Shown here: in pieces, positions 53,303 to 54,023 of the stretch | Layout of the letters: each line of letters opens with the position of its first letter | Numbering within the stretch: position 1 is the first letter of the stretch | Program-made: the position numbers and the translations under genes | Source of the DNA: Escherichia coli | Lineage (GTDB): Bacteria > Pseudomonadota > Gammaproteobacteria > Enterobacterales > Enterobacteriaceae | Assembly: GCF_003334785.1 (NCBI RefSeq) | Contig: NZ_QOWV01000001.1 | Direction: 5' to 3' (one strand) | Length of the DNA: 64,000 bases | The notes under the pieces: generated by a model | Database searches by the model: none | The model's input: the letters and a program-made list of their open reading frames with translations, nothing else | Told to the model about the DNA's origin: nothing

Positions 53303-53466
53303 AGCTTTAATCCTTATTGTTGATGCTTGTTGTGCCTGAAAATCAGGCGATTCGTCGTTTTAGTAAACAGTACGAACAGATAAACGGTTATTATAATCAA
53401 CCTGGCTGTGAGTAGCTATAGTTGCCAGGTCCGACCGGAGCAGGCTGCGGCAGGGGGGGCGCTTTT

Positions 53467-53505
53467 CCCCTCACCCTAACCCTCTCCCCAGAGGGGCGAG
53501 GGGAC
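53467..53505. repeat. GC-rich imperfect palindromic intergenic repeat
   Basis: cccctcaccctaaccctctcccc aga ggggcgagggga; a decayed second copy lies at 53656-53684. Confidence 0.5.
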
Positions 53506-53583
53506 CGTATTGTGCAAATATTGTTACCCCAGCAACAAACAGGCTCATACAGCCCCTAACCCTTTCATGGCGATGGCTGGGAC

Positions 53584-53727
53584 GGTTCAGACCTTGCCGA
53601 ATATTCTCCAGCACCGTCTCCATGTTTTCACCACAACAGCTATTCGGCTCGGTCTGCCCCCTCGCTCTTTCAGGGAGAGGGTGACCGGCGGTTCAGTTCC
53701 TGCAGAATATTCTCCAGCACCGTCTCC
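53584..53727. repeat. Two direct copies (38 nt, 4 mismatches, 22-nt identical core) of the ycjD 3'-end sequence, 106 bp apart
   Basis: 53584-53621 ggttcagaccttgccgaatattctccagcaccgtctcc vs 53690-53727 ggttcagttcctgcagaatattctccagcaccgtctcc; second copy lies inside ycjD. Confidence 0.7.
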
Positions 53728-54023
53728 TCATTACAATCAATCTCGTTATTCCAGAAACGCAGCACGGTCCAGCCCTGCGACTCAAGCCAGCTAGTGCGCC
53801 TGGAATCATAGGCAACTGCTAAATCATGCTGCCCACCATCCAGCTCAACGACTACACGCGCCGAGCAGCAAGCAAAATCGAGAATGTAGCTCCCCACTGG
53901 ATGTTGACGGCGAAATTTGAAATCACTAAAACGTCGGCTGCGAAGATATCGCCAGAGCTTTCGTTCCTGCAAAGTGAGATTGCGTCTTAAATCACGCGCA
54001 TTTGATTTAATTTTATCTATCAC
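53670..54023 (-). CDS. ycjD: DUF559 (Vsr-endonuclease-like fold) protein YcjD
   Basis: 117-aa ORF with GTG start at complement 54021-54023; C-terminal RRSPSP is encoded by the GC-rich repeat. Confidence 0.75.
   Translation of the reverse strand: MIDKIKSNARDLRRNLTLQERKLWRYLRSRRFSDFKFRRQHPVGSYILDFACCSARVVVELDGGQHDLAVAYDSRRTSWLESQGWTVLRFWNNEIDCNEETVLENILQELNRRSPSP

Follow-up and report, generated by a model that had tools for sequence, protein, structure and literature searches.

In the REP/REPIN-RAYT systems, the genome contains tens of scattered copies of a short, GC-rich palindrome, frequently paired in inverted orientation as doublets whose folding yields long hairpins, and a usually single-copy nuclease gene is flanked by inverted copies of its cognate repeat. 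Similar traits are found in Escherichia coli when the repeat known as BoxC, PIT or TMECO is considered together with genes for DUF559 nucleases such as YcjD. This report concerns ycjD and the BoxC elements at its 3' end, which lie between fabI and sapF in a 64,000-nucleotide (nt) stretch of E. coli DNA (contig NZ_QOWV01000001.1 of assembly GCF_003334785.1; referred to here as the window), and the conserved association, in other bacteria, of YcjD-like nuclease genes with motifs of the BoxC type. It is this association that is new; BoxC itself and the ycjD/eef polymorphism at this locus were known. The flanking arrangement typical of RAYT genes is seen at the level of the DUF559 family, in 63 of 80 loci; in E. 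coli itself both BoxC copies are downstream of the gene. RAYT is an HUH Y1 (IS200-like) transposase, whereas the protein encoded here is a nuclease of approximately 110 amino acids of the Vsr-like / PD-(D/E)xK type, and BoxC differs from REP in its three-block (triplex-capable) design. Based on these comparisons, the YcjD-BoxC pair would at most work like REP/RAYT and would not be a member of that system.

BoxC has been described in a literature that goes back to the 1990s (Hoyne et al. 2000; Holder et al. 2015; PMC4666352). The elements are reported to be always intergenic, to occur five times in K-12 as inverted pairs of a type A and a type B element, and to mark unusually rearranged regions (PMC4666352). 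Formation of an intrastrand triplex by the single strand has been reported in vitro (PMC4666352); hairpin folding was computed for BoxC here. A mobility function near BoxC was never found and the origin of the repeat was left open in that paper, in which the words endonuclease, DUF559 and ycjD have no occurrences. The published habit of forming inverted A and B pairs, as well as the local instability, agree with the copies in the window. In contrast to the published picture of orphan intergenic elements with 'no mobility genes', one partner copy in the window is within the ycjD reading frame, and whereas no nuclease was mentioned before, the motif is tied here to a nuclease gene across bacteria. 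No paper linking a DUF559 nuclease to BoxC-type repeats was found in the open-access literature.

YcjD is a protein of 117 amino acids and 13 kDa consisting of a bare Vsr-like (EDxHD-related) DUF559 nuclease domain. It matches NCBIfam NF007294 over the whole protein (7.8e-81; 267.8 bits, cut-off 218), PF04480 and PF18741 are precomputed for its cluster, and it is about 50% identical to the Neisseria gonorrhoeae protein of known structure PDB 3HRL (1e-27). The family profile reaches the homing endonuclease I-Bth0305I (3R3P) with an E-value of 1.5e-3. YcjD retains D49, E60, D62, H66 and D73, all of which are invariant or nearly so in the family, and the position in 3R3P aligned with D49 is the mutated catalytic aspartate. 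Judging from these residues and the fold matches, YcjD is a predicted nuclease of the Vsr-like / EDxHD superfamily. The catalytic domains of I-Bth0305I and Vsr belong to the same superfamily, but YcjD lacks the NUMOD/helix-turn-helix DNA-binding region and is not located in an intron or intein, and unlike vsr its gene shows no linkage to one for a cytosine methyltransferase. I-Bth0305I acts as a dimer on a pseudopalindromic target, and a palindromic repeat would therefore fit as a substrate for a related enzyme. In Caulobacter, a DUF559 protein damages DNA and induces the SOS response in vivo.

The DUF559 family comprises 24,577 clusters at 50% identity. For the comparison across phyla, YcjD residues 1-110, which exclude the repeat-encoded tail, were searched against 1.84 billion representatives, and a tail-free alignment (A1) supplied 80 loci from species genomes of many phyla. 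These were scanned with a generic finder for the three-block motif, defined as a pyrimidine block, a loop, a complementary purine block, a linker and a second purine block. A motif lies within 200 nt of the domain in 63 of the 80 loci, and 138 of the 177 motifs fall within the 8% of sequence that adjoins the gene. Gaps adjacent to the gene contain a motif in 85 of 143 cases, compared with 8 of 130 for other gaps (odds ratio 22, p 2e-22). Upstream of the gene, the closest motif has the sense orientation ('+') in 42 of 48 cases, and downstream of it the closest one is antisense ('-') in 44 of 53, the usual layout being an inverted pair around the gene with the third block on the gene side. DUF559 domain-containing proteins have been found to be 14-fold enriched among predicted inversion targets, as would be expected of genes located between inverted repeats.

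The two copies at one gene also resemble each other more than they resemble copies elsewhere. Median identity is 0.88 for the left and right copies at one locus and 0.72 for copies taken from separate loci; in 17 of 31 loci a copy matches its own partner best, and block and loop sequences vary by lineage. Dispersed motifs likewise resemble the cassette on their own contig (0.84 vs 0.74), which is their best match in 13 of 34 cases. A test for inverted repeats that makes no use of the motif gave 52 of 79 loci above the 99th percentile of shuffles versus 7 of 141 control positions. Peptides encoded by the repeats directly flank the domain in 48 of 146 diverse family members, as opposed to 0.05 of 146 in the shuffled control and none in the domain core. 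The association of DUF559 genes with BoxC-type motifs is statistically strong, and the figure of 63 of 80 is an underestimate because the motif finder missed variants with long linkers. The original prediction for this stretch of DNA, which described a rearranged DUF559 gene end beside palindromic repeats, missed that the association of gene and repeat is a conserved architecture of a nuclease family across bacteria and not a local accident.

Variants of the flanking motif in which the 3-nt linker is replaced by a GC mini-hairpin of 13-15 nt, for example tggcccgaagggccg, occur at loci L027, L040, L071, L082, L088, L093 and L100. So long a linker ill suits a compact triplex, which suggests that the three-block design serves another purpose, such as that of a repeated protein-binding site. 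The gene for 3HRL in N. gonorrhoeae (L104, 1380-2060) lies between two copies of an element of about 80 nt containing the three-block motif CCTCTCTCCC...GAGAGAGGG, and here the flanking copies are direct repeats rather than inverted ones. In the methylcitrate operon, a DUF559 cassette separates acnD from prpF in a gammaproteobacterial metagenome-assembled genome, in Vogesella and in Acidovorax (L048, L066 and L077, approximately 2880-3380). The flanks of this cassette are 77-79% identical and the cassette itself 67-72%, so that the cassette diverges faster than its neighbours.

The pairing can be followed at closer range in the relatives of E. coli. Homologues that are 58-69% identical to YcjD are encoded in Enterobacter, Klebsiella, Kluyvera, Lelliottia, Phytobacter and other genera, and the gene occupies five enterobacterial loci, which are fabI-sapF, hemW-yggM (Enterobacter), cysP-Dyp peroxidase (Klebsiella and Kluyvera), rsmJ-uspA and yohJ-metG. 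The layout at all five is the same and consists of the gene, an antisense BoxC with the stop codon in its loop, a spacer and a sense BoxC; since it is identical at non-syntenic loci, gene and repeat move as one unit. Almost all of the enterobacterial homologues have the tail PSPRPSP*, which is a reading of CCCTCACCCCGGCCCTCTCCC; a BoxC-encoded PSPxPSP tail is present in 66 of the 91 homologues from outside E. coli and forms the exact C-terminal end in 54 of them. Tandem arrays that start at the 3' motif also occur. In the yohJ-metG gap of 'Erwinia' mediterraneensis (L064, 3317-4061) there is an array of 7.2 units of 103 nt with 92% matches; it starts right at the DUF559 gene's 3' end, and every unit opens with a BoxC-type motif. 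Smaller arrays were found at L076 (2.8 units of 57 nt) and in Klebsiella (L011, about three units of 62 nt).

The duplication in the window is one instance of this general behaviour, given that arrays of the 3' motif recur in independent lineages. The original prediction had reported a duplicated segment of the ycjD 3' end, and this is borne out by a direct repeat of 39 nt that is 90% identical, has a spacing of 106 bp and contains an identical core of 23 nt, GAATATTCTCCAGCACCGTCTCC, for which the chance expectation within 800 nt is about 1e-8. The 39-mer belongs to a longer tandem duplication (about 106 nt), in which it is the stretch that has changed least. The duplication was recovered by pairwise local alignment over about 105 nt, and each of the two units (Table 1) consists of a ycjD 3' end, a BoxC-type hairpin and a spacer. 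Tandem Repeats Finder was blind to this duplication because the units are too diverged, and pairwise alignment was required to detect it. The true end of ycjD reads ETVLENILQELNRRSPSP*, compared with ETVLENIRQGLNR... in the decayed unit A.

Two GC-rich palindromes had been noted at this site with the comment that their family could not be named; they are BoxC copies in mutually inverted orientation, with arms 53479-53503 and 53658-53682 that are 80% complementary. The BoxC consensus used was CCCTCNCCC-N3-6-GGGNGAGGG-N3-GGGNGAGGG. The left palindrome, with arms at 53466-53476 and 53494-53504, fits it and corresponds to TMECO #9 (MG1655 1351204-1351239), one of 23 K-12 copies listed (PMC4666352), which is inverted relative to the gene-proximal copy. 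In K-12 the gene-proximal copy is a hairpin only, and it is complete in alleles L003 and L004. The last six codons of ycjD, RRSPSP, are encoded in the proximal hairpin as had been seen before, and the TGA stop (53670-53672) is located in the hairpin loop as well. Each copy of the duplicated fragment had been assigned one of the two palindromes; this holds for the copy at the gene end, which adjoins the hairpin at 53657-53683, but the distal copy pairs with the decayed element at 53553-53582 and not with the palindrome at 53467-53505.

Table 1. Positions of genes, repeats and hairpins around ycjD, numbered from the first nucleotide of the window
Feature	Position	Strand	Basis or remark
fabI	52514-53302	-	gene
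ycjD-BoxC cassette, 0.6 kb, variable	53426-54019		match end points and strain comparison
BoxC/PIT/TMECO #9, type A, one mismatch, CCCTCGCCCCTCTGGGGAGAGGGTTAGGGTGAGGGG	53468-53503	-	consensus match 53468-53502; Table 1 of PMC4666352
Tandem unit A, decayed (pseudo 3' end, degenerate BoxC, spacer)	53518-53621	-	local alignment
Degenerate BoxC in unit A	53553-53582	-	alignment
Pseudo 3' end in unit A (direct-repeat partner of copy 2), would read ETVLENIRQGLNR	53583-53621	-	repeat search and alignment
Tandem unit B, functional (ycjD 3' end, BoxC hairpin, spacer)	53622-53727	-	local alignment
Gene-proximal BoxC hairpin, type-B-like, antisense to copy #9, encodes ...SPSP and stop	53657-53683	-	repeat search
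ycjD	53670-54023	-	open reading frame; MG1655 annotation b1289
Direct-repeat copy 2, true ycjD 3' coding end (...EETVLENILQELNR)	53689-53727	-	open reading frame and repeat search
Hairpin just after sapF, 17-20 bp, near-perfect, overlaps ycjD start codon	54020-54064	-	-18.5 kcal/mol, z -7.9
sapF	54091-54897	-	gene

The earlier suggestion that repeats mediated a rearrangement of the DUF559 gene, here at its 3' end, is supported by natural alleles of E. coli, some of which are short of one unit of the 106-nt tandem duplication. In the one-unit allele L102, the gene runs directly into the distal unit and the product has 147 amino acids. Alleles L003 and L004 retain CACCCTCACCCCAACCCTCTCCC, and their complete gene-proximal BoxC reads CACCCTCACCCCAACCCTCTCCC TGA AAGGGCGAGGGGG; aligned with them, the K-12-type allele has a 12-nt deletion that removed the third block. 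This deletion corresponds to the '12-nt insertion' of ST69/ST182 (PMC12817139). L004 retains more of the decayed BoxC of unit A, and the duplication is old because the divergent allele L003 has it too. One-unit and two-unit alleles, the 12-nt block deletion and several frameshifted read-through products or variant C-termini (P0004-P0016) thus coexist in E. coli. The extra ycjD fragment thus arose as a side effect when a structure-forming repeat underwent slippage or unequal recombination. An open reading frame of 50 codons (53471-53623, minus strand), METVLENIRQGLNRPSHRHERVRG...PLAPLGRGLG, represents the pseudo 3' end of ycjD reading into BoxC #9. The same sequence is the real C-terminus of the 147-amino-acid YcjD of one-unit alleles, and it is an instance of repeat-encoded peptide tails entering protein databases.

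The region corresponds to rnb-yciW-fabI-ycjD-sapF of E. coli K-12 MG1655, whose coordinate is the window coordinate plus 1,297,737. The original prediction considered the region as a possible recombination scar, and comparison of 5426 complete E. coli genomes supports a recombination-prone site, as the ycjD-BoxC cassette alternates there with the 8-kb eefRABCD efflux island. The cassette is carried by 3328-3378 of the genomes (about 61%) and the island by the remainder, in which the match on the fabI side ends at window position 53425 and is followed by the resistance-nodulation-division (RND) efflux island; in O157, TetR/RND genes occupy the position of the cassette. BoxC blocks were not found at the junctions of the eef haplotype. 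That ycjD and eefRABCD are alternatives at the fabI-sapF junction has been published (PMC12817139) for the same locus, with the same presence and absence and the same 12-nt difference in ycjD length in some sequence types, but the repeats, the tandem duplication and the relationship of nuclease and repeat were not analysed in that study. Taken alone, the local feature is ordinary, since slippage accounts for the duplication and both BoxC and the ycjD/eef polymorphism have been described before.

The near-perfect hairpin on the sapF side of the cassette is common to both haplotypes and has a different loop in eef-positive O157. It was considered as an upstream end of the cassette and ruled out in that role, as it also follows sapF in eef-positive strains, and it is assigned to the sap operon because the eef haplotype keeps it. 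It is not a classical terminator because no T-run follows it; in a read-through transcript it would occlude the start of ycjD. A scan of 52000-55000 with Rfam gave only chance microRNA-like matches on this hairpin and none on BoxC, and PADLOC gave no match to a defence system. The K-12-type allele has GTG ATA GAT AAA at the start of ycjD (54015-54023), where other alleles have ATG GAT AAA, and K-12 uses a GTG start one codon upstream because the ancestral ATG is now ATA.

The BoxC family extends far beyond this locus. Copies were counted with a 105-nt query around the left element, which gave a median of 16 and a maximum of 29 BoxC-like places per E. coli genome. The elements are dispersed, multicopy and mainly intergenic, with other copies located between unrelated genes such as phnP/yjdP, phnL/phnK, aaeR/tldD, tisB/emrD and tusA/zntA, and most copies are solo and have no nuclease gene nearby. 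The gene behaves differently from what the original prediction stated, namely that DUF559 is multicopy in E. coli; this premise fails because the ycjD core has a median of 1 and a maximum of 2 places per genome, and at the DNA level it is absent from 2048 of the complete genomes. In a sample of 60 genomes, those with ycjD hold 12-25 BoxC-like places and those without it 1-13, a difference that is phylogenetically confounded. Within the ycjD-negative genomes the copy number is bimodal, with either approximately 11-13 copies (e.g. O157) or 1-5 (e.g. SE15 and ST1193), which parallels a split between strains with few and many TMECO elements that was noted without explanation in PMC4666352. Four head-to-head BoxC doublets in K-12 have the layout of the cassette with a spacer of 16-29 nt where the gene would be; the spacers are short and mutually similar, and the doublets tested fold as hairpins of about 100 nt or as cloverleaves. 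Their layout is as would be expected of gene-less homing sites.

We propose, at roughly even chances, that YcjD-type nucleases and BoxC constitute a functional pair that resembles REP/RAYT and in which the repeats are copied in a homing-like manner. The association is observed directly, and the action of the nuclease is inferred from the architecture of the cassettes and by analogy. A dimeric nuclease of the YcjD type would recognise and cut at or near the BoxC palindrome, and break repair by the host would use other BoxC copies as template in a homing-like gene conversion that copies the repeats and sometimes the gene. The same process of breakage and repair could result in local tandem amplification beside the gene and in the elevated rearrangement reported around BoxC sites. 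Since the chemistry of the protein is purely hydrolytic, break and repair is favoured over true transposition. A broader version, to which we give somewhat less than even chances, is that BoxC/PIT/triplex-motif repeats are the terminal repeats and non-autonomous derivatives of DUF559 cassettes found across phyla, with the nuclease cutting the motifs and thereby driving their copying, homogenisation and instability.

Several observations weigh against a functional pair. A hydrolytic nuclease of 110 amino acids is incapable of carrying out strand transfer on its own. BoxC persists in 11-13 copies in ycjD-negative lineages such as O157. DUF559 remnants, which the original prediction would have placed at further repeat loci, were not detected beside ten other K-12 BoxC loci by tblastn with YcjD, and K-12 accordingly offers no support for reading solo BoxC copies as traces of lost genes. 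Enterobacteriaceae, E. coli included, have the repeats only downstream of the gene, and the acnD-prpF cassette, which occupies one site in three genera, gives an impression of stability rather than mobility. No pair of filled and empty sites was found (the empty hemW-yggM site of E. coli gave no cassette ends, as local synteny differs), and no target-site duplication was seen by eye at the K-12 doublets. In earlier experiments BoxC elements were found neither to act as promoters or terminators nor to affect replication in vivo. The K-12 ycjD allele may be decaying, given its lost ATG start and lost third BoxC block. The DUF559 family is rare on plasmids, with 44 of 72,556 plasmid records, many of which are chromids or mislabelled chromosomes, and a plasmid-borne origin of the family is unsupported.

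Alternatively, there could be no functional link between gene and repeat, an explanation that we regard as unlikely but that survives better than the others. A fragile BoxC would have inserted beside ycjD as it did elsewhere and been duplicated by slippage, and YcjD-like genes with an unrelated job, such as the Vsr-like T:G mismatch repair proposed for Caulobacter VsrA, would have been captured or retained there. The abundance of solo copies away from any nuclease gene, the persistence of BoxC in ycjD-negative E. coli, the general instability of BoxC loci and the functional tie of one DUF559 protein to a cytosine methyltransferase, and not to repeats, are all consistent with this explanation. 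Chance and fragility nevertheless leave unexplained why motifs flank the gene at set positions and in set orientations in 63 of 80 loci across phyla, with an odds ratio of 22 for adjacent gaps, as well as the co-variation of left and right sequences, loops included. They also do not account for a fused tail that was kept while the proteins diverged to about 60% identity and moved among five loci.

It is less probable still that the cassette is a true transposable element, an autonomous repeat-gene-repeat unit whose inverted repeats would be cut and rejoined and for which BoxC doublets and solo copies would be non-autonomous derivatives like MITEs (miniature transposable elements bounded by inverted repeats), with RAYT/REPIN or pairs of insertion sequences (IS) and MITEs as the closest analogue. 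Such a unit would have the inverted terminal-repeat layout that is observed, and would be in keeping with the same layout, short similar spacers and hairpins of about 100 nt of the K-12 doublets, with the presence of the gene at different loci in related genera and with dispersed copies that are cognate with the local cassette. On the other side, the bare Vsr-like hydrolytic domain has no known strand-transfer chemistry and no transposase domain is recognised, the genes are mostly single-copy, and the stability of the acnD-prpF locus across genera, the lack of target-site duplications at the doublets (by eye) and the failure to recover paired empty and filled sites all speak against transposition. 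Least probable is that the motifs are cis-acting expression modules, with the upstream copy as a purine-rich ribosome-binding site or 5' stabilising hairpin, the downstream copy as a 3' stabiliser or terminator and solo copies as leftovers of lost cassettes, for while the domain often starts 10-45 nt after the third block of the upstream motif (GGGTGAGGGG and similar), which in several loci directly precedes the ATG, and the stop codon of Enterobacteriaceae is in the downstream hairpin loop, neither BoxC hairpin at ycjD is terminator-like or followed by a T-run, which rejects an intrinsic terminator, promoter or terminator activity was not seen in the earlier experiments, the other K-12 loci are free of gene remnants, and neither the near-identity of some 20 solo copies genome-wide nor the use of such modules by DUF559 alone is explained.

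The pairing of YcjD-like nucleases with BoxC-type motifs gives a testable function for DUF559, a family of approximately 24,600 clusters. It also suggests a cause of the elevated rearrangement around the motifs, including that at the clinically relevant fabI / eef efflux junction. If true, a functional pair of nuclease and repeat would amount to a second system like REP/RAYT, based on another nuclease fold, would provide a role for one of the largest 'domains of unknown function', and would supply an origin for BoxC, which has been unexplained since the 1990s.

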